DNA from: Promethearchaeota archaeon
GTDB taxonomy: Archaea; Asgardarchaeota; Lokiarchaeia; Sigyniarchaeales; SOKP01
Length of the DNA: 64,000 nucleotides
NCBI GenBank assembly: GCA_019058245.1
Contig: JAHPZJ010000006.1
Location: forward strand, 96,457 to 160,456
Direction: 5' to 3'
Shown here: in pieces, positions 31,958-44,614 of the stretch
Numbering within the stretch: the stretch's first letter is position 1
Layout of the letters: the number at the start of each line of letters is the position of its first letter
The notes under the pieces: generated by a model
Seen by the model: the letters and a program-made list of their open reading frames with translations, nothing else
What the model was told of the DNA's origin: nothing
Database searches by the model: none
Made by a program: the position numbers and the translations under genes

Positions 31958-32497
31958 TTACTTAGGTTTTTCTATCATTTCTTTTGTAATTGTTTCAAAA
32001 ATTTGTTCTACATTCTCACCAGTTTTGGAAGAGCATTCAATATAACCACTTAATTTATATTTATTCGCTAATTCGATTGCTTCTTCGGATTGCACTGATC
32101 TTTTATCCTCGAGATCTGATTTTCCTCCAACCATTATGATGGGTATATTCATCTCTTTTTCGGATACAAAATACTCAAAAATCGATAACCAATCATCAAT
32201 ATCTTTTATAGTTGAATATCTTGTTATATCAAACATGAAAATACCACCATCTGCTCCTTTAGCAAAACTGGGTAAAAGTACCCTAAAACGTTCTTCTCCT
32301 GCAAAATCCCAAATTCGAAGTGTTACTGGTTTACCATCAACGGTTACATTTCTAATACTAAAATCTGCGCCAATTGTCATTTTAATGTCCTCTTCGAAAA
32401 TCTTAGTTACGTATCTTTTTATCAATGTTGTTTTACCGACTCCCCCTGATCCAAAAATACACAGTTTATAAGCTAATTTTGACGCTATGTTTAACAC
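31958..32497 (-). CDS. Rab-like small GTPase
   Basis: G1 GSGGVGKT, G2 TIGADF, G3 WDFAGEERF, G4 GKSD, G5 ECSSK. No C-terminal Cys motif. Confidence 0.95.
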   Translation of the reverse strand: MLNIASKLAYKLCIFGSGGVGKTTLIKRYVTKIFEEDIKMTIGADFSIRNVTVDGKPVTLRIWDFAGEERFRVLLPSFAKGADGGIFMFDITRYSTIKDIDDWLSIFEYFVSEKEMNIPIIMVGGKSDLEDKRSVQSEEAIELANKYKLSGYIECSSKTGENVEQIFETITKEMIEKPK

Positions 32498-33118
32498 CTT
32501 ATTTTAGATAGAAAAATTTCTCTTCTTCTAAATTATCGTTATAACCTTTAAAAATCTTTTTAATTATAAAATAATTTATTTTTTATTATTTATTTTATTT
32601 AGTTTTTTTGTTCTTTAAGGATATTATGTGGGTTTTTATTTAATCTTACCAAAGACTTATAGAGATTAGTTATATTAAAAAGCTATGACCTCTATTTTAA
32701 CTAATTTAAGTTATATCTTAATAATTAAATTATTAATAGTACAGAATTAATAAAATAAGCCTTGTTATATAATCTCGGTTATAAAACTCGTTTCAATTAT
32801 CTTAATTCCCAATATTTGGGATAATTTATTCTCAACTATTGGATTAAACTTTACTATTGAATCAATATATTCTTAACAAAAAGAGATCACAATTACCTGA
32901 TAAACGCTATATATTTGTAGTATCTTTAATGTCAATTAGATCTTTTAATATTTGACAAATTAATGATCGAAATTAGTATTTATATGATCTAATTTTAAAA
33001 AAAGATTAATAGTTCGAATATTTTAGTTACTTAGTATAATTTTAATTAAAATTACTGAGAAATTTTATATTACTGGATTTAATTTTAAAATTAGAGGAAA
33101 ATAATTATTGATGATAAA

Positions 33119-34600
33119 ATGAGTGTTAATCAATACGATTTAGCTATTATTGGAGGAGGACCAGGAGGTTATCATGCAGCTATTAGAGCGGCTCAATATG
33201 GAGCAAAAGTCGCATTAATTGAAAAAGCTAAGTTGGGTGGTACCTGTCTTAATTGGGGGTGTATCCCTACAAAGGCTTTATACGCTTCTGCTCATTTAAT
33301 AGAAAAAGTAAAAGAAGCCCATGAATTTGGAGTAGAAATTTCTAATTATAATTTAAACTTTGCCAAAGCTGTTGATAGAAAAAATCAAGTAGTCAAAGAA
33401 TTGGTTGGCGGAATTGAACAATTAGAGAATGCGTGGAAAAATGATGTCTATAAAGGGCATGGTAAAATTATAGGTGGAAATAGTAATGATGGATTTGATG
33501 TGTCGGTTGAAGGTGAAAATAATGAAGTAATTAAAGCAAAAAGGGTAATTATCGCAACAGGTTCCTCACCTGCTCTAATTCCAGCATTTAATATTGATCA
33601 TGAAAGGATTTTAACGAGTGATGATATTTTACATCCCGAATTTAAAACTGTACCTAAAAGACTTTTGATCATAGGTGCAGGTGTTATTGGTTGCGAATTT
33701 GCGAATATTTTTACACGATTTGGCAGTAAAGTAATTATGCTTGAATATCTTCCTTCTGCTATTGCTACAGAAGAACCTATGATTGTAAAAGTGTTAATGA
33801 AAAAATTTGAGGAATTAGGAATTGAACTCCATACTTCGCAAAATGTATTATCTGTAGAAAATACTGGTTCTGGAGTAAAAACTACTACCTGTGATTCCTC
33901 TATTCCACGAGATCAAACGGATTCTGCTGAAAAACATATCTTTGAAGCCGATTTATGTTTAGTATCTATTGGTCGTGCAAAAATATCAAAAGATCTTGGT
34001 TTAGAAAATCTTGGCATAGAAACCGATCGTGGTGCTATAAAAGTCAATAAAGATACGTTAGAGACTTCTATGAAAGGAATCTATGCAATCGGAGATGTTA
34101 CAGGAGGGCTTATGCTTGCTCATGTAGCCAGCTATGAGGGTGATATCGCAGTTGCAAATGCTTTAACCAGTATTGGAGGGTTTCCTGTTAGCGAAATGAA
34201 ACCTGATTATAGAGTAGTTCCCGCAACAATTTTCACCTCTCCAAATATAGGTTCTGTAGGCTATAGAAGAAAAGTTGCAAAAGATATGGGAATGGATGTT
34301 TTAATGGGTCAATTTCCTTATCAATCACTCGGTAAAGCTAAATGTATGGGCGAAGAAACAGGCTTCCTTGCAGTCTTATGTGAAAAGGAGTCACATAAAA
34401 TTATTGGTGCATCTTGTATTGGTACTGGAGCCCCAGAATTAATAGCTGAAATAGCATTGGGAATGCAACATGGTTTAACAGTTCATGATATCGCAGAAAC
34501 TATCCATAGTCATCCAACAATATCTGAAATGGTATTAGAGGGATGTGAAGCAACAGTTGGTATGGCTATTCATAAAAAAGGGAGACCTATTCAACATTAA
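33119..34600 (+). CDS. lpdA: Dihydrolipoamide dehydrogenase
   Basis: GGGPGGY, GGTCLNWGCIPTK, GAGVIGCE, AIGDV...LAHVA, HPTISE. Confidence 0.96.
   Translation: MSVNQYDLAIIGGGPGGYHAAIRAAQYGAKVALIEKAKLGGTCLNWGCIPTKALYASAHLIEKVKEAHEFGVEISNYNLNFAKAVDRKNQVVKELVGGIEQLENAWKNDVYKGHGKIIGGNSNDGFDVSVEGENNEVIKAKRVIIATGSSPALIPAFNIDHERILTSDDILHPEFKTVPKRLLIIGAGVIGCEFANIFTRFGSKVIMLEYLPSAIATEEPMIVKVLMKKFEELGIELHTSQNVLSVENTGSGVKTTTCDSSIPRDQTDSAEKHIFEADLCLVSIGRAKISKDLGLENLGIETDRGAIKVNKDTLETSMKGIYAIGDVTGGLMLAHVASYEGDIAVANALTSIGGFPVSEMKPDYRVVPATIFTSPNIGSVGYRRKVAKDMGMDVLMGQFPYQSLGKAKCMGEETGFLAVLCEKESHKIIGASCIGTGAPELIAEIALGMQHGLTVHDIAETIHSHPTISEMVLEGCEATVGMAIHKKGRPIQH
34430..34600 (+). repeat. lpdA 3' end, left copy of a 171-bp diverged direct repeat
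   Basis: Aligns codon for codon with 39154..39324; 65-bp identical core at 34472..34536. Confidence 0.95.
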
Positions 34601-34623
34601 ACATTAGAATATCTCTTTATTTC

Positions 34624-37600
34624 TTATTTTTTATTATTTGTGGATTTATTAGAAGATACAATCAAAAATTTAGCTTGTTCCAACCCTAAATTATTTATCC
34701 TATAAATTCGTGAAGTAGCGCCATTTATTAGCTTACCTATTCTGGTTTTTTCTGATTCTTTATATAATTCTATAAGACCTTTTTTGATTAATTTATGAAG
34801 ATATTTATTAACAGCACTAACAGATAAATCTAGATATGAAACTAATTCATTTGATGTGAATTGATTGCTATTTTTTAGTTTAGTTATTTCATAAATTGCT
34901 TTAATATACTTTTTCCATCCTTCTCCATAACTAATTTGTTTTTTAAGAGGATTTCCTATTATTTCATCTTTAAATTTAAAATTTTTAATATTATCAATTA
35001 TGTTTTTATAACCTGATTTTACTTTTTTTTTATAATTTTCATATTTCTTTTCAAAAATTTCATCAATATGTTTAATGAATCTGAAATGAGTGATTATTTT
35101 GTGACAATTAGAACAAAGAGCAATACAATCCTCTTCTCTTAACATTTTCCTTATTTTTTGTATATCATATTTTTTAATATCTGTCCATTTAGATTTTTGT
35201 TCATCTGTATTTTCATTTCTATGATGGAAATCGAAGCTAGGCAAGTTGTTTCTAACGGTAATTTCACCACACCCTATGCATTTTCCATTATACATTTCCT
35301 CAATAATATATCTTTTTTTAAGCCATCTCTTAATCTGTGTCTTAAAACTGCTAATCTTTGATGATGATTTCTTTTTTAAATCTGGAAAAGTCTTCAAATA
35401 ATTATTTATAATCTTATCAATTTCGATAGGTGTGTTCTTAAAAATATCATTTTTTAGAATAAGATTCTCAAATTTTTTAAATACTAATGCTTGTTTTTTT
35501 GAATGACAATTAGCACATAATAATGTAAGGTTTTCCCTTTTTATTATTTCAACAATATGATTTAAATTCATGTTAAATATATCTCCCAGATTTACTTTTT
35601 TAGTAGTTTTATCTTTATGATGAAATTCTAAAGCACTAAGTCTTGAGATATCTGTCATACATTCTTCACATTTAATTTTGGATTTTAAACCTAATAATCT
35701 TAGTATAATTTTAATCTTTTTTTTATAATATCTGATTGCTCCCTCTTCTAATCTACATTTTTTACATCTACTTTCTAGAAGATTGTTCTCTTTTATATTA
35801 AATTCTATATAGTCTTTAATTTTATGACATTGACCACATTCTTTTTTCTTTCCATCATCATATAAAGATTGAAAACTTAATTTATTCATATTAAATTCAT
35901 CACTATGTTCATTCAAATAATCTATTAATTCAGAAATGAAACTTAAGAGAGTTCTTTGAGAAAGCCCTAGAGTGTTATTGTTTTTACTCAATTTGGATAC
36001 AAAATATTTAATATTGAATATATTACCAGCTTTCTTTTGCCTTAGTTTTTCACTATTTAAGTCATAAATTAGCTTTATCAGATCTATTAAATAGAGTTTC
36101 AGTGCTAAAATTTGATTTTTATCAAACAATAATTTATTTAAATAATTTAATTCGTGATTGGGAATTTTTTTTACCCAATTAAGCTTATTTTGTTTACTCT
36201 TTAGACTACTAATCAGAAATTTAACAAAATTTTGGAGTTGTAAAACTCTAAATTCATCCATTTTATTATAGATAGCTAAACTAATTATTAACCTTGATTT
36301 TTTTGGAAATTTCTTTATTTTTTTAATATTTCTAAGTCGTAGAGCCTCAGATATTTCTTTCTTATAATGATTACTTGTAGAGAGAAAATTTTTTAACATA
36401 ACTCTTTTAACTCCTTGGTTATAATCCCAACCCCATTTGATATAATTTTTGGTTGGTTGTTTGAATTCAGCTCCTAATAATAAGACTAAATCTTCAGTAG
36501 GAAGTTTAATTAATAGAGAAATTAATTCCTTCTTGTCATCTTCAGTAAATTCTTCTTTTTGGAGAATTTTATTAATTAGAGGTTTTTCCTTTAATATCAA
36601 TGTTGTATTTTTATATAGATTCTCCTTTAAAAGCTCCTTCCAATTTTGCTTAATATTTTTCTGAGGATTTTTAACTTCTTTAAGATAATTTAGTTTTTGA
36701 GAAAGATGTTTAAGAAATTTATGTTTCTCGGCAATTATTTTATGTTTATACCATCTAATGTTTTCATTATAGAAAGCTCGAAAAGCTCTTAAATTTTTAA
36801 AAATTTTTTTCTGTATACTTGTGGTTTCTTCTAATTTCTCTATCAATATCTTTATTTCTTCAATTTTCTTTCTGGTTAATTCTTTTTTTTCTGATAGATG
36901 AAGAAGTCTCCAATATATCTCTCGACTCTGATGGTATTTTCTGATTATATTAAGTAATTCTTCTTTTATTTCTTTTGAAACTTCAGTTTCATTTGCTTCA
37001 TTAATCCATTGTTTCAAAAAGAGTTCCCATTCTTCTCTAATTTCACTTTTTCTATTGCTATCTGTTTTTATAAGAGTATATTCCTTTTGACTCTCTAACC
37101 ATTCTTTAAATCCCTTAGTTTTTTCTTTATTATAAATGGGTCTTTTCCCTGTTTCCTGACGATATCTTTCTTGTAATTCTAACAGTTCTTTTGAAGCAAA
37201 TTCCCTTTTCTGTTTGTCCTTCAGTTTCTCTTGTTTTTGTACTTCCAATATTTCAGAAGTTTCTAACTCCTCATATTTCTCAGGTCTATTTTTGGAGATA
37301 TGCTGAATTTGTTCAGAAGAATAATCTACTTCAATTTTATGTCTTTTTTCTTTTTTTTCAGCCAGAGTTGAATTATTTTTTAAATTTATTTCTTTAGATT
37401 CTTCAGCTCTACTTTTCTTTTTTGTTTTTTGAGAGATTTCTGTTATTTTATCAGATTTTTTAGATTTCTTTTGAGATTTTCTAAGTTCTATTTGAGAAAA
37501 AATGGGCTCATACTTAGTTTTTATTAAATCTTGGTACTCATGATGTTTGGATTCCTTCAATTCTTTTGGATCAGTAATCGAATCTTTTTCTTTTAAATGA

Positions 37601-38631
37601 TCTGTTTTATATGTTTCTCCCTGATTATGTTTTAATATCTTTTCCGATTCTGGTTCTTGTATAAGCTCTGATTTTTGATCAAATGACTTTTCTGATTTCT
37701 TATCTGATATATTCTCTAAATAATGTTCTGATATAAGCTCGGATTCTTGATCTGGTATTTTTTCTAATTCTTGTTCTGGTTCAATCTCTTGTACTTTATC
37801 TCGATTTTCCTGTTGTTCGTTTAATTGCTCAAGATAATCCTGAAGAGGTATAAATTCCCAGTCTGGTTGACGAGGCACCGGTTCTCCCGTTTCTGGATTA
37901 ATAAGCTCCAATTCTTTTTCTAACTCTTCTTTGGGTTTATCTTCAGATTCATTCAGAAATTCCTGCTCCGGATGATCTAAATGTTCACTCATAGGTTCAA
38001 TATCTGGCGAAAATTCGGGTTCTTGTTCAGAGGCATAATCAGAATTATAGCTCCCTTCCTCCATTAATTCTATAATTTCTGGTGGCTCGGCAGGTTTTTC
38101 TGCTTTCCCTTCTGGAGTAATTAATTCAAACTCATCAATCTCCTCAGGCTTTCCTTGTAGGTTTTGCTCAGAAATATTCTGAGATTCAGAATCTATCACT
38201 CGTTCTAGCTGTTCTTCGGGATTTTCTGAAGGAGATAAGATTGTTTCTGTCCCTTCTCTACTCAAATTAGATTCATAATCATTTTCATTATCAGGGGGAT
38301 CTTTTACTGGTTCAAATTTATCATCTCCCCAATCATAGTCTTCATCAGGATTGTACTCATCTCCCCAATCATAGTCTTCATCAGGATTGTACTCATCTCC
38401 CCAATCATAGTCTTCATCAGGATTGTACTCATCTCCCCAATCATAGTCTTCATCTGGATTATACTCATCTTCCCATTCGTAATCCTCATCAGGATTAAAT
38501 TCCCTTTCCTGAAATTCTTTCTCAGGATCAGTTTCAGGATTAATGTCTGGTTCCCCTTCTTCGTATTCTTCACCAGATTCACTAATAGATAATCTCCTCA
38601 GATTAAAGCTGTAACCATAATTTTTATTCAA
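34624..38631 (-). CDS. 1335-aa protein: acidic disordered N-terminus with tandem repeats, two HNH-type zinc-binding nuclease modules, C-terminal winged HTH
   Basis: CEEC...LEFHH...LLCANCH and CIGC...FDFHH...ALCSNCH; extra CGQC...CKKC finger; FTSNELVSYLDLSVSAVNKYLHKLIKKGLI. Confidence 0.8.
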   Translation of the reverse strand: MNKNYGYSFNLRRLSISESGEEYEEGEPDINPETDPEKEFQEREFNPDEDYEWEDEYNPDEDYDWGDEYNPDEDYDWGDEYNPDEDYDWGDEYNPDEDYDWGDDKFEPVKDPPDNENDYESNLSREGTETILSPSENPEEQLERVIDSESQNISEQNLQGKPEEIDEFELITPEGKAEKPAEPPEIIELMEEGSYNSDYASEQEPEFSPDIEPMSEHLDHPEQEFLNESEDKPKEELEKELELINPETGEPVPRQPDWEFIPLQDYLEQLNEQQENRDKVQEIEPEQELEKIPDQESELISEHYLENISDKKSEKSFDQKSELIQEPESEKILKHNQGETYKTDHLKEKDSITDPKELKESKHHEYQDLIKTKYEPIFSQIELRKSQKKSKKSDKITEISQKTKKKSRAEESKEINLKNNSTLAEKKEKRHKIEVDYSSEQIQHISKNRPEKYEELETSEILEVQKQEKLKDKQKREFASKELLELQERYRQETGKRPIYNKEKTKGFKEWLESQKEYTLIKTDSNRKSEIREEWELFLKQWINEANETEVSKEIKEELLNIIRKYHQSREIYWRLLHLSEKKELTRKKIEEIKILIEKLEETTSIQKKIFKNLRAFRAFYNENIRWYKHKIIAEKHKFLKHLSQKLNYLKEVKNPQKNIKQNWKELLKENLYKNTTLILKEKPLINKILQKEEFTEDDKKELISLLIKLPTEDLVLLLGAEFKQPTKNYIKWGWDYNQGVKRVMLKNFLSTSNHYKKEISEALRLRNIKKIKKFPKKSRLIISLAIYNKMDEFRVLQLQNFVKFLISSLKSKQNKLNWVKKIPNHELNYLNKLLFDKNQILALKLYLIDLIKLIYDLNSEKLRQKKAGNIFNIKYFVSKLSKNNNTLGLSQRTLLSFISELIDYLNEHSDEFNMNKLSFQSLYDDGKKKECGQCHKIKDYIEFNIKENNLLESRCKKCRLEEGAIRYYKKKIKIILRLLGLKSKIKCEECMTDISRLSALEFHHKDKTTKKVNLGDIFNMNLNHIVEIIKRENLTLLCANCHSKKQALVFKKFENLILKNDIFKNTPIEIDKIINNYLKTFPDLKKKSSSKISSFKTQIKRWLKKRYIIEEMYNGKCIGCGEITVRNNLPSFDFHHRNENTDEQKSKWTDIKKYDIQKIRKMLREEDCIALCSNCHKIITHFRFIKHIDEIFEKKYENYKKKVKSGYKNIIDNIKNFKFKDEIIGNPLKKQISYGEGWKKYIKAIYEITKLKNSNQFTSNELVSYLDLSVSAVNKYLHKLIKKGLIELYKESEKTRIGKLINGATSRIYRINNLGLEQAKFLIVSSNKSTNNKK
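38321..38500. repeat. 36-bp coding tandem repeat, five units (EYNPDEDYDWGD)
   Basis: Unit tcatctccccaatcatagtcttcatcaggattgtac: three perfect copies, one with two changes, one degenerate. Confidence 0.95.
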
Positions 38632-38825
38632 TCCTTTTCTTTAAGTTTTGATGTTTCCTTGTCTGACTTATCCACTAATAAATTAGTGTCGGAGTTTAAT
38701 GAATTCCCACAAGAACTACTAAAATTATTATAAGTTTTTATAGAATTTTTGCATAAGGGACATACATTCTCAATTCGATTAATAGTGTGATTTGTCAATT
38801 TTTCATATTTGAAATCTAATATCAT
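38628..38825 (-). CDS. Small degenerate zinc-ribbon protein
   Basis: CPLCK...FSSSCGNSL; its stop overlaps the start of the HNH gene (ATGA). Confidence 0.55.
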   Translation of the reverse strand: MILDFKYEKLTNHTINRIENVCPLCKNSIKTYNNFSSSCGNSLNSDTNLLVDKSDKETSKLKEKD

Positions 38826-38981
38826 TCTTTCAAGAATATTTAAATAAAAATTCCTAGATCAATATCGAAGTTTTTCTTTTAAATATAAAAAATTAATTCA
38901 AAAGATGAGAAAAGTTTAAATCTTGATTTACTGGAGTTAATACATTTTTATTATAATAATATCTATATATGGTATCTTCTA

Positions 38982-39095
38982 CAGTGGAAAGCCTTTGATT
39001 ATGAAGAAATAAATAGACAACCCACTTCGAACGAAATGCGCGAAGTAAAGAGTTATGCTAAAGAGTTAAGTATAATTTTTAAGCCTGTATCATAA
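38982..39095 (+). pseudogene. Orphan 3' gene fragment resembling the C-terminus of PflX-type radical SAM proteins
   Basis: QWKAFDYEEINRQPTSNEMREVKSYAKELSIIFKPVS*; resembles the KA.eYpEINR..t..E..Ev..yA.ELG tail as recalled from memory. Confidence 0.5.
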
Positions 39096-39153
39096 TATAT
39101 AATTAATCAAAATTAAATTATGAATCTTTTAATCCAATTTTTCAGATGCTGAA

Positions 39154-39324
39154 GCACCCGAATTAATCTCTGAAATTGCTTTAGGAATGCAACACGGTTT
39201 AACAGTTCATGATATCGCAGAAACTATCCATAGTCATCCAACAATATCTGAAATGGTATTGGAAGGTTCTGAATCTGTCGTAGGTAAAGCAATCCATAAG
39301 AAAGGACGTCCTATTCACCATTAA
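39154..39324 (+). pseudogene. lpdA: Duplicated lpdA 3' fragment (right copy)
   Basis: APELISEIALGMQHGLTVHDIAETIHSHPTISEMVLEGSESVVGKAIHKKGRPIHH*, with no 5' part of the gene. Confidence 0.95.
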
Positions 39325-39703
39325 TTTAATATGAATATTTTTTCTTTCATATATTATTTTTTTTTCTATAAAGCGGTTTTAATGAAATAAAATGAACCAT
39401 AAGTAGGGGGTTCCTATTCATCATCTCCCCTATTTTTTGAATACTCTTTTTGATCAATGATTAATATTAAATGACTGATTTCGATATATTTGATCGATAT
39501 TCGTTATTAATATTATGGTAACTTAACATAGATTCCCTTCGATTTTTGATATGTGACTCCTTTCAAGAATTGATTATTACTAATTTATGCTTGAGGCGAT
39601 CATTCTCGCAAAGCTGTTTTATGTTATGCGACGGAGAAAATATCGGAAATGATCACGTTTATATATGATCATTTCTATACAATACTTGAGGTGAGTAAGT
39701 AAA

Positions 39704-39970
39704 ATGGATAGTATAAGATCGAAGAAAAAGGCACTCAAGAATTTTGAGAATATAAAGGACGCCGTAAAAGGTTTATATGAGATTTTAGAGCTTTCCCTGA
39801 ATGAACATGATTTTTATTATAAAGCAGGTAAAGATAACATTACAGCAATTTATAAGAATCTCATAGAGTTATTGTTAAATGAATATGGGCTTCGTCAACT
39901 TTTAAAGAAGATCCAGAACTCAGAAGTAGATTTGAACATCGTGCTTAATGAGTATTTAGCAAATGCCTAA
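39704..39970 (+). CDS. Small helical hypothetical protein
   Basis: 88-aa ORF with a strong SD (GAGGTGA) and TTTATATA upstream. Confidence 0.8.
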   Translation: MDSIRSKKKALKNFENIKDAVKGLYEILELSLNEHDFYYKAGKDNITAIYKNLIELLLNEYGLRQLLKKIQNSEVDLNIVLNEYLANA

Positions 39971-40035
39971 TAAATTTTTTTTACTGATTTCTTTCTTACT
40001 AAATTTTTGAAAATATCCTAGTTGTATTACTTATA

Positions 40036-40122
40036 TTACTATAATACCAGTTCCCTGACCTCGTCCGTTGAATACTCACCTCACTCATTGTCCTATATAT
40101 TCATGGAGATATCAGGGAACTG
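40036..40122. repeat. Structured 87-bp intergenic element, copy 1 (candidate ncRNA)
   Basis: Identical to 42582..42668; closing stem CAGTTCCCTGA/TCAGGGAACTG. Confidence 0.9.
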
Positions 40123-40284
40123 ACCCTTTTACTTTTTTTCGGAATAATTAACCTTTAATGAAAAATAATATTAATTTATTTCATAATCCGCTTAATAGAG
40201 GTGTGACATTACATTAAAAAATAAAGAGTCATTACAAAAGATTATCATAAATTTCTTAATCTATAAAAATTGAAATGGCAAAAA

Positions 40285-40923
40285 ATGGGATATAAAATGG
40301 TATTAAATAGAAACTTTAAAAATGTCAAGAAATGGGAAAAATCCTTTAAGAAATTTTTGAAGGAAATGCCAACTAATGCTATATTGTGTTCCTTAATTAC
40401 ATCAGGTTTTGCCTCGATTTCTATAAAAGAACGAGTTGGACAGGAGGTTTTGAAGCGAAATCCAGATAAAAATGACTTGAGTATTATCATCAAATATGTG
40501 GAGTCTTTAAGAGATCAAGCTTGGCAGGAATTCTTGAATCAAAACCCAAATGAAATCGAACTTGGGTGGGTTGTTAAAAACGTGGAATCTCTAAGAGAGC
40601 AAGCTTGGCAGATACTCTTAATGCAAAACCCAACTATTACAAACCTGTGTTTAATTATCCAAAAAGTGGAGCCTTTGAGAAAACAAGCCTGGCAGGTACT
40701 CTTGAAACTAAATCCAAATAATGACGAACTTGGGTGGGTTATTGAAAACATAGAATCTTTGAAAGATCAGGCTGGGCAGAAACTCTTGGAGAAAAATGAG
40801 CAAGATCCAAATCTTCTTGATCTAGCTCTAATCATTCACTATGTGCCAACTTTAAGATATAAAACTTTAAAATTGGCTGATGATCGTGGATTGTTAAATG
40901 AGCTGGAAAATATAATAGGATAG
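40285..40923 (+). CDS. Alpha-helical repeat protein (about 28-aa repeats)
   Basis: Repeated VESLRDQAWQ.LL.QNP...EL.WV unit, four to five times. Confidence 0.75.
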   Translation: MGYKMVLNRNFKNVKKWEKSFKKFLKEMPTNAILCSLITSGFASISIKERVGQEVLKRNPDKNDLSIIIKYVESLRDQAWQEFLNQNPNEIELGWVVKNVESLREQAWQILLMQNPTITNLCLIIQKVEPLRKQAWQVLLKLNPNNDELGWVIENIESLKDQAGQKLLEKNEQDPNLLDLALIIHYVPTLRYKTLKLADDRGLLNELENIIG

Positions 40924-40997
40924 AGGGAGTATATTTTGTTAAATAAATTTAAATAATATTAGAAACTACATAAAAGAAAAAAATTATTAGAAATCAG

Positions 40998-41228
40998 GTG
41001 AACGCTATCACTAAATGTTTTATTTGTAAACAAGAAGTATTTGAAGAAAGTCTTGAAAGAACTTTAATTTGTTTTTGTAACCATACTTTAGGTATAGTAT
41101 GTGATAATTGTCTTGATTTATATGATTGGAAATATTTACCAGAAAATATGAGATGTCCAAAATGCGGGAGGACATTATTTGCATTAAGAGATATAATGTA
41201 CATACACCGTAAGAAGTATGGATTGTGA
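40998..41228 (+). CDS. Small Cys-rich zinc-finger protein
   Basis: CFIC, CFCNH, CDNC, CPKC. Confidence 0.7.
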   Translation: MNAITKCFICKQEVFEESLERTLICFCNHTLGIVCDNCLDLYDWKYLPENMRCPKCGRTLFALRDIMYIHRKKYGL

Positions 41229-41325
41229 ATCTACTTAGTTTCTTGCGTAGTTTCTTTCAAAGTTTAAAAGTTTTCTGAGTCAACAAATATAAATATGATA
41301 AGCTGATATTGATAAGTTAGAGAAA

Positions 41326-42369
41326 ATGGCTCAAAATTTAAATAAAAAAAGAAATGTTAATATAAGAGAAAGATTTTTGAAAGGTGTGGGGTATAACATC
41401 GATTCAACAGTTAGGAGTCTTAGTAATTTCAAGTGGTCCAAAAATGTCAAGTGGTTAGCTTATTCTGGTCCATCCATAAACAAAATCGAGAATCTTGAAA
41501 CTTTAAAAGATTTGGAATATTTGAGATTAAATGGGGGAAGAATCTCAAAAATAGAGAATCTTGATGGTCTTAAAAGTTTGAAGTTTTTGGATTTAAGTGT
41601 AAATAATATCTCTGAGATTGAAGGATTAGAAAATCTCAAGAATTTAGAAATTTTACGATTTGGAAATTCATTTGAGACGAGTGGTGGAAATCCTATAAAA
41701 AAAATTAAAGGGCTTGATAATTTAAGAAATCTAAAAGAATTAAGTTTTATTCAGAATGAAATAACCGATATGAGTGGATTAGAAAATCTAAAAAATTTAG
41801 AGATTTTAGATCTCAGAGCAAATAAAATTACTGAAATTAAAGGGTTCGACAGTCTTAATAATTTAAAAGAGCTTTATCTCGGTACAAATCAGATTATAGA
41901 AATTAGAGGTCTTAATGATCTTAAAAAGTTAGAGATCTTGTGGTTAGGAGGCAATAAAATAACAAAAATAAATGGTCTTGCTAATTTAAGTAATTTGAGG
42001 GAATTATACTTGGATTTTAATAAGATCACAGAAATAACAAATCTTAATTCACTTGAAAAGTTAGAGAGATTGTATTTACATTGCAATAACATTTCAAAAA
42101 TAGAAGGTTTAGAAAATTTAATTAATCTAGAGATTCTGAGTTTAGATGGTAATGAAATTTCAGAGATACAAGGCTTAGACACCATTAAAAATCTAAGACA
42201 ATTGGATTTAAGTCGCAATAAAATTTCCGAAATTAAGGGAATAGAGAATTTAGTGAATTTAGATCAATTAGGACTTCATGATAATCCTATTAAGAGGATT
42301 TCTGGGATTGAATCACTGAAAAGGTTGAAGATCTTTGGAATAAAGAACCTTATGCTAGAACAACAATAA
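41326..42369 (+). CDS. SDS22-like leucine-rich repeat protein
   Basis: About 12-13 22-aa repeats of L..L..L..L.L..N.I..I.GL. Confidence 0.93.
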   Translation: MAQNLNKKRNVNIRERFLKGVGYNIDSTVRSLSNFKWSKNVKWLAYSGPSINKIENLETLKDLEYLRLNGGRISKIENLDGLKSLKFLDLSVNNISEIEGLENLKNLEILRFGNSFETSGGNPIKKIKGLDNLRNLKELSFIQNEITDMSGLENLKNLEILDLRANKITEIKGFDSLNNLKELYLGTNQIIEIRGLNDLKKLEILWLGGNKITKINGLANLSNLRELYLDFNKITEITNLNSLEKLERLYLHCNNISKIEGLENLINLEILSLDGNEISEIQGLDTIKNLRQLDLSRNKISEIKGIENLVNLDQLGLHDNPIKRISGIESLKRLKIFGIKNLMLEQQ

Positions 42370-42581
42370 AAAGCATTCGATAAAGGAAATTTTAAATAAA
42401 GTATAATAAAGGCTCAATAATTGATTAAAATCGTATTAATTGAAGAGAAGTTAGCAAAATTTTATCACTAAGTTATCCGATTCAATATTGAAGATATTAA
42501 ATAAGCGATCATTCAGTTTAGTATTTGAATCTATTTTTGTAATATTTATTAATTGCATGGTTAGAGAAGATTTGTGTTCTG

Positions 42582-42668
42582 TTACTATAATACCAGTTCC
42601 CTGACCTCGTCCGTTGAATACTCACCTCACTCATTGTCCTATATATTCATGGAGATATCAGGGAACTG
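42582..42668. repeat. Structured 87-bp intergenic element, copy 2
   Basis: Exact direct repeat of 40036..40122; both copies are followed by a T-rich run on the + strand. Confidence 0.9.
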
Positions 42669-42866
42669 CCCTTTTTACTTTTTCTGAAATATTCTGAGTA
42701 TATTAAAAAATAAAACGTAGGCTTTAATTATAAAATATCAGATTCTATTATTTGAATACTAAATAAGATTATGAAAAAAAGATTTTGCATCTTGTATGAT
42801 TTAATATGAAAATTATTTAAATTTCATATTATTTTAAACTTCATTATAAGCTAAAATGGTGATATT

Positions 42867-43379
42867 ATGAATAAAATTGTAGTTATAGTTGGAGGAGTAA
42901 TTGGAGTATTGGCATCTATTCTATGGTTATTTGAACCTTCACTTGGTTGGTGGGAAGTTACTGTTAAGTTAATTGGAACTGAAGGGGGTTATATTAATCC
43001 TTTTGGATATGGAAGTAATACGATTAATTCAGATATTGAGTTTCATGGACCTTTACTTCTAATAGGAGGAATTGTGTTTTTAGCGGCCTCTATATTAGCA
43101 ATTGTTTCTGCGATTAAAGAGAAAAAAGAACTTTCAATCTTATTTGCGTTTGTCATGGTTGGTGGTTTAGGACTCTTTTGCTATGGGTTAGCTATGATTG
43201 AGAATTTACAGGATATATTATCTGGTTTAAGTTGGTGGACTGGGGAAGATTATATTGTGTTTTGGGGAAGCAAAGATTTAGGAATATTAGGGGATTGGGC
43301 GTGGAGATTGGGAAATGGTTTTTTTATTGCTATTGGAGCGTTTATTGTCACTTTAATTGGTACACTTGTAAAAGATTAA
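42867..43379 (+). CDS. Four-TM membrane protein
   Basis: Four hydrophobic segments with loops between TM1-2 and TM3-4. Confidence 0.75.
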   Translation: MNKIVVIVGGVIGVLASILWLFEPSLGWWEVTVKLIGTEGGYINPFGYGSNTINSDIEFHGPLLLIGGIVFLAASILAIVSAIKEKKELSILFAFVMVGGLGLFCYGLAMIENLQDILSGLSWWTGEDYIVFWGSKDLGILGDWAWRLGNGFFIAIGAFIVTLIGTLVKD

Positions 43380-43423
43380 ACCCTTTCTTTTTTTTTTAAT
43401 TTTAAAATCGCATTAAAAGCTTT

Positions 43424-44614
43424 TTATATAAATAGAAATACACCCCAATACACCCCAATCAATATTATAAAGGATAGAAACGTTGGCTTACCTAAGATTT
43501 TTACTACTTCTTTAAAATTCGTTTTAAAATATTCTGTACTATATGCCACACATGGATGAATTGGAGTAATCAGATATCCGAGAAAAATTGAGGTATAGAT
43601 AAAAACAAAATCTAAGATTGACATGGTGAGAACAGTATATTGTACAAGGTATATAGGGACTAATATTGAAATGGGTAATTGAATGCGTCCAGTTGCGAAT
43701 CCAAGAAAAAATCCAATTAAGATAAAAAGGAAAACGGACAAGTTTATACTAGCAATTTCTTCAGGAGCCCCAGAAAGAATAAAAACTTCTAAAAACAAGA
43801 ACATAGAAAAAATAATAAAGGGAAAGCGCCATATTTTCATCCTTTTTGATATATCCTTCACACTTAAAAGGCTCATATTTCCAAATCGCGATGCTAACCA
43901 TATACTAAAAATAAGACCAACAAGAAGAAATAATTCTGGAACAGCGAAGTTAAAAAAAGTCCTTCCGATGAAATCAATAATAGGTGCAATAATAATTGGA
44001 AGCAGATTATGGAAGGCTCTCTTAAGATCTCTTTCGCCTTGTTCTGAAAAAGGAGTAACCTTTTGAACCATTATATAATATCCTATAAACCACATTACAA
44101 TAAGGCTTGGTAATAATGCAATTACTAATATATAGAGATTAATAGTGGTAAGTACACTTGCAACTATTAATGATGAAGATAATGGATAAATCAGGATTAG
44201 CATATGCCGAAACCATACATTAATAGAGACCTTTTTGTTTATATCCTCCTCAGAACCAATATGATCTACAATAGGTGCTGACATTAAAGCACCTCCAGGA
44301 ACAGGTAATAATCCGAATAGTGCTGGCATCATCATAAGAGAAGTCTTTTTCGAAACTCGCATTTTCTGAATCATTTCCATCATTAATCCAGATTCTTCCA
44401 TTAAACCCCCTAAAATGGGAATAAGTGCAACAATAACCATTAACACTAAAATAGAGGGATCTGTTAGTACATTGATTAATGATTGTAGGATATTAGTTCC
44501 AGCTAAAATAGCAAAACCTATTGCACCTAGGGATAATATAATACCTAATTCATACTTAGAAAGAACCATTACTATAGCGATAACAATGATAAAACTTAAC
44601 CATGCGGGGAGCAT
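43424..44614 (-). CDS. DUF401-family membrane protein (putative transporter)
   Basis: PALFGLLPVPGGALMSAP, INVWFRH...YPL, GYLITPIHPC....EYF. Confidence 0.85.
   Translation of the reverse strand: MLPAWLSFIIVIAIVMVLSKYELGIILSLGAIGFAILAGTNILQSLINVLTDPSILVLMVIVALIPILGGLMEESGLMMEMIQKMRVSKKTSLMMMPALFGLLPVPGGALMSAPIVDHIGSEEDINKKVSINVWFRHMLILIYPLSSSLIVASVLTTINLYILVIALLPSLIVMWFIGYYIMVQKVTPFSEQGERDLKRAFHNLLPIIIAPIIDFIGRTFFNFAVPELFLLVGLIFSIWLASRFGNMSLLSVKDISKRMKIWRFPFIIFSMFLFLEVFILSGAPEEIASINLSVFLFILIGFFLGFATGRIQLPISILVPIYLVQYTVLTMSILDFVFIYTSIFLGYLITPIHPCVAYSTEYFKTNFKEVVKILGKPTFLSFIILIGVYWGVFLFI

Follow-up and report, generated by a model that had tools for sequence, protein, structure and literature searches.

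The window analysed here, a 64,000-nucleotide stretch of an Asgard archaeal genome (G000, contig C6:96457-160456), carries an lpdA gene whose 3' end has been rebuilt by an island encoding a 1335-aa protein with two HNH nuclease modules. Comparison of this locus with its counterparts in related genomes indicates that an integrase-free, nuclease-bearing block has repeatedly entered one spot of lpdA in uncultured Asgard archaea, supplying the gene with a new end and displacing the old one. Its probable mode of spread is cleavage at that spot, followed by copying of the block during repair.

A duplicated lpdA end frames the island

The island begins directly behind an intact lpdA gene.

33119..34600 (+): intact chimeric lpdA, dihydrolipoamide dehydrogenase family, 493 aa (Pfam Pyr_redox_2 and Pyr_redox_dim)
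34624..38631 (-): 1335-aa double-HNH protein, convergent with lpdA, stop-to-stop distance 23 nt

The last 57 codons of lpdA are present twice, at 34430-34600 and, 4724 bp downstream, at 39154-39324, with 144 of 171 nucleotides equal in a gapless alignment; the homology extends 5 nt further leftward, to 34425/39149. The longest identical run between the copies measures exactly 65 bp (34472-34536 and 39196-39260, codons 452-473) and includes the HPTISE codons. Outside it, 22 codons differ, 16 synonymously and 6 non-synonymously, in agreement with the first-pass annotation of this DNA, which had reported a doubled lpdA end, an identical 65-bp core and mostly synonymous flanking differences. The 21 unchanged codons of the run have a probability of P ~3e-6 at the flanking synonymous rate, so this identity is not due to chance.

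The genome is metagenome-derived, related strains share samples, and the unitigs of the likely source run break at the 65-bp repeat, with the full island in no single read or contig. These features would suit a strain-chimeric misassembly, which the first-pass annotation had itself named as fatal to its reading. The same unitigs, however, traverse both island junctions, including that between a gene scrap and the displaced tail, as well as the switch at codon 414 described below. The junction between the lpdA stop and the HNH gene was recovered in a second study with 3-4 differences, and the same displaced-tail layout occurs in four independent related genomes (G024, G012, G003 and G056). Misassembly is therefore an unlikely source of the layout, to the point of being hardly credible.

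The rebuilt end is foreign and the displaced tail native

Native and foreign sequences were distinguished by codon painting against six relatives and by segment identities to island-free relatives.

33119..34357 (+): native lpdA body, codons 1-413; 81-93% nucleotide identity to G041, G018, G059 and G046 in most segments, and placed among them by the body tree
34358..34471 (+): foreign tract, codons 414-451, with a sharp start at codon 414 (codon painting, allele table)
34472..34536 (+): 65-bp patch identical to the displaced tail, an identity absent from the sister genome G024 (79% here)
34537..34600 (+): foreign 3' end of lpdA (codons 474-493 plus stop codon); 97% to the intact gene of G024, 67-72% to G041, G018, G059, G046, G067 and G001
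39149..39324 (+): displaced native lpdA tail, codons 436-493; 91/86/93% to G041 and G018, 96/95/100% to the G024 tail

Codons 416-451 of the intact gene match island-free relatives at 62-80%, and codon painting from codon 414 onwards bears out the proposal of an intact but chimeric lpdA rebuilt with a foreign tail. The ancestral tail, as the comparison with the island-free G041 and G018 indicates, is the displaced right copy, which is native throughout, on both sides of the 65-bp core; its 5' end is probably eroded. The foreign tract begins at codon 414 in G000, G024 and G052 and, by codon painting, at 413-414 in G012, a member of another host clade; lpdA is ~73% alike between the two clades that share this junction. 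Window codons 414-417 read T-G-F-L and those of naive alleles E-G-F-I, making them a candidate resistant site.

An initial suggestion held that a circle carrying a foreign lpdA tail integrated via a single crossover inside the 65-bp HPTISE core, an idea invited by the identical core with both flanks diverged. After such an event, the left part should be foreign in the displaced copy and native in the intact gene. The reverse is observed: the displaced copy is native on both sides, and foreign sequence in the intact gene starts at codon 414, preceding the repeat by 23 codons. Codon painting thus refutes the crossover, unless every relative serving as a native reference is recombinant as well. 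Moreover, G024 holds the same island with the core absent, and the identical tract of G012 lies elsewhere, at codons 421-450. On these two grounds the core is a later gene-conversion patch rather than an integration core, and a crossover within it is very improbable. It was also rejected as an att site, since identical tracts do not keep one position across genomes. As the foreign tract starts at codon 414 and the core is not shared, we place the putative cut site near codons 413-417 rather than at HPTISE.

In G052, foreign codons 414-478 are followed by a native end and a native-like flank (the contig stops 25 nt further on), a pattern that we infer to be an excision scar. Runs X4 and X9 contain a related lineage with a continuous allele that departs from the window sequence after 34357 (codon 413); a 34357-to-39148 joint in these runs was rejected as a circle or empty site of the present population, as it stems from that lineage and not from excision here. 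Being short (225 nt) and mosaic, the tail tree points to no donor, and no carrier of an lpdA tail was found among viral contigs.

Recurrence at one position of lpdA

Displaced tails share a contig with intact lpdA in G024 (2.3 kb), G012 (23.5 kb), G056 (11 kb) and G003, where two of them are stacked; in G068, G059, G140, G127 and G132 a tail stands alone. The native tail is kept beyond the island in G000, G024, G012 and G056. Four of the ten displaced tails with a visible start begin at codons 413-417 (G012, G068 and twice in G003), the others at ~425-446 and none earlier; these are not ten independent events, G140 and G127 being near-identical. The DNA 5' of the four full-length tails shows no common arm, which fits illegitimate joints.

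All nine of the closest nuclease homologues (G000, G024, G012, G137, L100, L101, L126, L299 and L300; 43-100% identity in the nuclease region) are positioned tail-to-tail against the lpdA stop, across at least four host lineages, so that the suggested tie between the HNH gene and the lpdA site holds. Homologues at 32-40% identity occupy other loci, not lpdA, and the survey for gene ends next to them, proposed with the first-pass annotation, found distant homologues adjoining duplicated ends of acyl-CoA synthetase, iolM-type dehydrogenase, dapB and tRNA-His genes. Beside lpdA the nuclease gene is optional, most relatives being without it, and its copies form a decay series of two stops (G012), a frameshift (L126), a truncation (G024), scraps (G001, G003) and a 25-nt trace (G056). 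Leu417 is present in all eight scorable linked alleles versus 18 of 68 others (Fisher p 8e-5, or 0.007 counting four lineages; kin are not independent). Several of the linked Leu417 alleles also carry changes or two-codon insertions at codons 411-414.

In G013, G023, G104 and G113, small HNH genes are located downstream of lpdA at a distance of 3 kb; they were not counted as lpdA-linked, and that of G013 adjoins a tRNA-Arg gene. Partial lpdA matches at G041:C37 and G015:C24 are not displaced tails. The assemblies L220 (G020:C80) and L217 (G061:C83) both end within lpdA, at codons 406-408 and thus shortly ahead of the proposed target; strain variation at this site would produce such breaks. G140 and G127 (L214, L215; L208, L209), of another genus, possess an lpdA 88% identical to that of the window, followed by a hairpin element of the window's genus, and a frameshifted lpdA tail on another contig; their lpdA is likely a cross-genus replacement of the whole gene.

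The double-HNH protein

The 1335-aa protein consists, in order, of an acidic repeat N-terminus, a basic and charged middle, a CxxC...CxxC zinc finger, two HNH modules and a C-terminal winged helix. Aspartate and glutamate make up 35% of the N-terminal 330 residues.

38321..38500 (-): 36-bp tandem repeat, five units, encoding the acidic N-terminal repeats
35503..35670 (-): HNH module 1 with CxxC, H1004/H1005, N1041 and H1043, invariant in 18 homologues
35101..35280 (-): HNH module 2 with CxxC, H1137, N1175 and H1177; profile match to the EcoKMcrA HNH domain (6ghc, E 0.0065)
34642..34938 (-): winged-helix domain; its model matches 2qvo_A (Z 12.3, root-mean-square deviation 2.6, 84 aligned)

The catalytic H, N and C residues are intact and invariant in both modules. 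Scanned alone, the domain reaches 25.3 bits against the Pfam HNH cut-off of 21.4, and the protein has a PHROG HNH match at E 6e-22. Among lpdA-linked copies of the nuclease, omega (dN/dS) ranges from 0.12 to 0.36. Foldseek and VIA-align searches with the double-HNH model (pLDDT 92.8) returned no significant match, the best being helical at Z 6, and an ESM Atlas search with the middle domain gave none. A 91%-identical homologue is labelled Promethearchaeota by its source, so that the host is most likely an Asgard archaeon of Lokiarchaeia type. As to a possible type IV (McrA-like) restriction system or a defence pair of HerA and nuclease, PADLOC reported weak HerA and CARF matches only, and the likeness to McrA is confined to the HNH fold.

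Contents of the window island and of complete copies

Between the nuclease gene and the right flank, the island retains pieces of two further genes.

38628..38825 (-): 3' remnant of a 718-aa HerA-like ATPase gene, 63 codons with a zinc ribbon; residues 656-718 of the G012 ATPase match at 48%, the DNA at 68-78%
38983..39095 (+): 3' scrap with 36 codons from a host radical-SAM gene; full copy on contig C27, 89% nucleotide identity over 113 bp
39704..39970 (+): conserved 88-aa host gene of the right flank, adjoining the lpdA 3' end in island-free relatives

The first-pass list of contents (the 1335-aa HNH protein, a tiny open reading frame (ORF), a gene scrap and no recombinase) stands, apart from the identity of the supposed zinc-ribbon ORF, a 65-aa minus-strand frame that is the end of the 718-aa ATPase gene; the scrap is now identified as the last 36 codons of the radical-SAM gene. 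In the complete elements of G012 and L101 the ATPase gene precedes the nuclease gene. Because the 65-aa ORF and the scrap are gene ends, the window island is a decayed and deleted remnant of a larger element, with most of the ATPase gene gone. The 23.5-kb G012 island additionally carries a second HerA-like protein (1289 aa), membrane proteins, Cas6 and Csm6. Its CDC48-N piece was rejected as a displaced remnant; it is an element gene, 44% identical to host CDC48.

Neither a tyrosine nor a serine recombinase is present in the window island (Pfam PF00589, PF00239, PF07508). The sole PF00589 match in G000 (76% complete) is a XerA-like gene on contig C24, with zero matches to the other two families. 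No recombinase was found in the G012 island or in four other complete islands (five in all), and G012 and G056 hold one PF00589 gene each, off the island contigs. As a blast query, the host XerA-like protein had no match in loci L157-L194, nor among the matches listed for L278-L297. Window positions 32000-44000 gave no Rfam match, and a sigma-70 scan, a test unsuited to archaea, stayed at chance level.

Sister subfamilies and a tRNA-type insert

At 22 other double-HNH loci, a tRNA gene is adjacent in six and a protein gene-end remnant in three, namely of acyl-CoA synthetase (435 bp, 79%), dapB and the iolM-type dehydrogenase. In G043, the upstream iolM remnant ends exactly where the rebuilt gene carries a 29-nt insert of bulge-helix-bulge type, and removal of the insert restores C-G-I-C-G. 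Seven genomes have an insert at this site, with covarying stems; an eighth (G090) has a fully canonical one at a second site, four codons away.

L185:9320-9350 (G043:C60); L258, L259, L260, L261, L262, L263, L264: iolM-type inserts of 29-30 nt, eight genomes, at least three genera

A double-HNH gene lies upstream of an insert-bearing iolM-type allele in two genera (G043, G113), the arrangement known from collaborative homing. In four genomes (L164, L171, L173, L174) a pair of GIY-YIG nuclease and HerA-like ATPase genes stands directly behind the thermosome gene. On two contigs (L102:23-2473, L302:8001-9371) a thiolase-like gene directly follows a member of another sister double-HNH subfamily (36-40% identity), and at L166 a further giant acidic protein is tail-to-tail with smc.

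Lokiarchaeia might accordingly harbour a whole family of chromosomal, integrase-free homing elements, with one conserved gene for each double-HNH subfamily plus a GIY-YIG set behind the thermosome gene; these would use one-sided break repair, bring in kilobases of cargo and be protected by a recoded end or a short bulge-helix-bulge intron. We regard this extension as tentative and rather doubtful. If true, such nucleases would offer a route for tRNA-type introns into Asgard tRNA and protein genes, whose spread was left as an open question (bioRxiv 10.64898/2026.10.13.758758).

Proposed mechanism and its alternatives

Taken together, the alignments show a recipient lpdA joined to a donor lpdA at about codon 414, by which the donor tail, the nuclease gene and cargo came in. 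The native tail was displaced beyond the island, at a junction that lacks a common arm. The gene was patched afterwards (the 65-bp tract) through recombination, either with the tail or with relatives, and such recombination can remove the island, leaving a scar as G052 suggests; a deletion took away most of the ATPase gene. One-sided homologous integration follows from this anatomy, and the nuclease as its trigger we infer.

We lean towards an integrase-free element whose free-standing double-HNH homing nuclease would cut near codon 415, with repair homologous on one side and illegitimate on the other, and thus judge the homing-type reading offered from the outset to be the best one. The constant part of the element would be the nuclease gene tail-to-tail with a recoded lpdA end. 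The nuclease is predicted to cut naive lpdA near codons 413-417, where naive alleles read G-F-I-M and element alleles G-F-L. The left break end would then be repaired by copying donor DNA and the right end, since lineages differ in the DNA beyond lpdA, would be joined illegitimately. The net process would be intronless homing with one-sided repair, followed by erosion, conversion and decay.

Several observations weigh against this homing scenario. G000 holds 19 candidate gene-end repeats (several being mere paralog arrays), and the lpdA one alone encloses an HNH motif; the host therefore makes such scars without a nuclease in cis, and the lpdA layout by itself is no proof of a selfish element. 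Two small G003 cassettes in the same lpdA codon are nuclease-free, and in one displaced tail, tail 1 of G003, codon 417 already encodes leucine. Among alleles lacking the nuclease gene, 26% have Leu417; changes are tolerated along codons 411-417, and related alleles do not count as independent. Any passenger that uses lpdA as its anchor would be expected to lie next to it, and strand exchange that stalls at a mismatch, a variable stretch or an intron would likewise fix the junction. At the shared iolM site, five of the seven alleles with an insert have no HNH gene in the available flank. The passive alternative is homology-facilitated illegitimate recombination, of which a homologous join on one side and a non-homologous join on the other, as seen at lpdA, is a feature: DNA of a relative would pair via lpdA, strand exchange would stall at the variable stretch of ~codons 411-420, the far end would join illegitimately, and the nuclease and ATPase genes would be passengers, for example a defence pair, located by chance beside lpdA in the donor. 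The same mechanism has been proposed for displaced gene ends at Vibrio type VI secretion system (T6SS) and rhs loci (PMC5361080). It would account for the nuclease-free cassettes of G003, for the chromosomal-type cargo of the G056 island and for the many nuclease-free gene-end remnants of G000, among them the following.

C14:117014-117142/129698-129826: nuclease-free island with diverged ends of a GH57-type gene
C26:3457-3567/6242-6353: nuclease-free island, uvrA 5' end around a glycyl-radical-type gene
C28:232700-233296/242443-243039: nuclease-free island with diverged ends of a 497-aa gene

What passive recombination leaves unexplained is an intact, conserved nuclease against lpdA in at least four lineages while other cargo changes, the difference at codon 417 between each linked allele and the native one of its host, where known, and the pairing of other subfamilies with tRNA genes and an intron site. 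Recombination of this kind needs no enzyme encoded by the element and forms joints at variable positions; nuclease-free remnants are indeed common in G000, but the lpdA joints cluster at codons 413-417 (4 of 10). We consider the passive account, the main rival of homing, possible, if on balance unlikely. Phage 21 integrates in Escherichia coli icd, as prophage e14 does, and there too a replacement 3' end comes with a displaced native tail. This shared anatomy, the fixed left junction, the clearly deleted state of the window island and the transfer-module-like set of two HerA/VirB4-like ATPases and membrane proteins in complete copies would all suit recombinase-driven, site-specific integration at an attB near codons 413-417, with an integrase lost from every copy seen, acting in trans (host XerA) or residing in an unrecognised protein. 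Against such an enzyme stand the five complete islands without a recombinase, the single PF00589 genes of G012 and G056 on other contigs, the lack of an arm shared by the sequences 5' of the four full-length tails, and the absence of XerA-like matches near related modules at other loci, among the matches listed. Recombinase-driven entry is accordingly improbable.

A candidate uptake operon and neighbouring repeats

For the entry of donor DNA, the homing scenario has a candidate in a widespread operon of HerA/VirB4-like ATPase and membrane-protein genes. The 1289-aa G012 protein is HerA/DUF87-like by its features, and 102 of 135 family genomes hold homologues beside small genes whose products are membrane proteins judging from sequence. 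Ced/Ted-like DNA transfer systems combine a VirB4/HerA ATPase with a VirB6-like channel and VirB2-like pilins; of these parts, the ATPase was recognised here. We further observed a conserved chromosomal operon (L283, L284, L290-L297) encoding a helix-hairpin-helix protein, two small probable membrane proteins, a 1270-aa HerA-like ATPase and a 120-aa protein; homologues of this ATPase, too, are present in 102 of the 135 family genomes, and the operon is a candidate DNA uptake or exchange system.

To the right of the lpdA island, a 107-nt direct repeat (96%; window 40031-40137 and 42577-42683, +) encloses a second island with a 217-aa repeat protein, a 76-aa Cys-rich ORF and a leucine-rich-repeat protein. 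The repeat contains a strong hairpin (z -5.8), which is conserved behind the 88-aa gene in many relatives, frequently with partial 3' copies beyond. It has no Rfam match (window 32000-44000) and may represent a non-coding RNA not yet named that also acts as a hotspot for insertions. The 88-aa gene likewise has duplicated 3' ends that include the downstream flank, 96-97% alike, at L061:5600-5689 (G041) and L056:2510-2579 (G008).

Implications and comparison with known systems

If the nuclease drives the process, Asgard chromosomes can gain kilobases of DNA at essential genes with no integrase involved, a route that recombinase-based screens would miss. A central enzyme has its active-site end recoded across species in this way, and lpdA codons 413-417 provide a mapped, testable target for a new two-module HNH protein. 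The iolM-type sister locus ties the same nuclease family to a tRNA-type insert in mRNA, making the arrival of Asgard introns testable. Should the passive account hold instead, additive, homology-anchored gene transfer would still be routine in these archaea.

Published Asgard mobile elements, namely the integrated mobile genetic elements (iMGEs) of Atabeyarchaeia (PMC11529989) and Fylgjavirus (bioRxiv 10.64898/2026.02.13.705702), are described in the passages searched as integrated accessory DNA with tyrosine recombinases and some HNH-like proteins; Yucahu-i has an 11-bp att motif. Those passages report none at lpdA, and unlike these elements the island is without a recombinase. A literature search whose coverage excluded subscription journals found no paper describing this element or such spread in Asgard archaea.

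An anatomical parallel is prophage e14 at E. coli icd/icdC (PMC13626634), which likewise enters the 3' end of a metabolic gene, supplies a replacement end, displaces the native tail and gives chimeric genes upon excision. e14 and phage 21, however, possess their own integrase and attP, neither of which was found in the island: its identical tracts shift between genomes, and the sequences 5' of the tails share nothing that could serve as an att core or conserved arm at the right junction. With C-terminal displacement at rhs and T6SS loci (PMC5361080) the island has in common one homologous anchor, one illegitimate joint and stacked 3' ends (two in G003); it differs in its housekeeping target, a junction that recurs at one codon and a conserved linked nuclease. 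The pairing of F-CphI with the psbA intron of cyanophage S-PM2 (PMC6083498) resembles the sister subfamily upstream of the iolM-type gene, with its insert at the remnant end (G043, G113). In contrast to such collaborative homing, lpdA has no intron and its protection would come from recoding, and the insert at the sister locus belongs to the bulge-helix-bulge type instead of group I.

The free-standing endonuclease genes mobE, segF and segG of phage T4 (PMC2988022) share several features with the island: an optional HNH gene beside a conserved gene, a recoded linked allele, co-conversion, a decay series and a putative cut site that lies hundreds of bases away from the gene of the nuclease. The T4 cases concern phage genes and two-sided homologous repair that leaves no duplicate (PMC2988022), whereas the island sits in an archaeal chromosome, its repair looks one-sided and the native tail is kept, as in G000, G024, G012 and G056. 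The island also differs in the size of its 1335-aa protein with two HNH modules, in up to 23 kb of cargo and in that cutting is predicted from sequence. As in homing, the gene is optional at a fixed position and patchy among relatives, its product has a homing-family nuclease domain with intact catalytic residues, and the linked allele differs at the one site where the tracts begin (codon 413-414 and Leu417; kin are not independent). As a whole, these features suggest that the island functions like free-standing intronless homing, in a variant form from which two-sided repair is absent.

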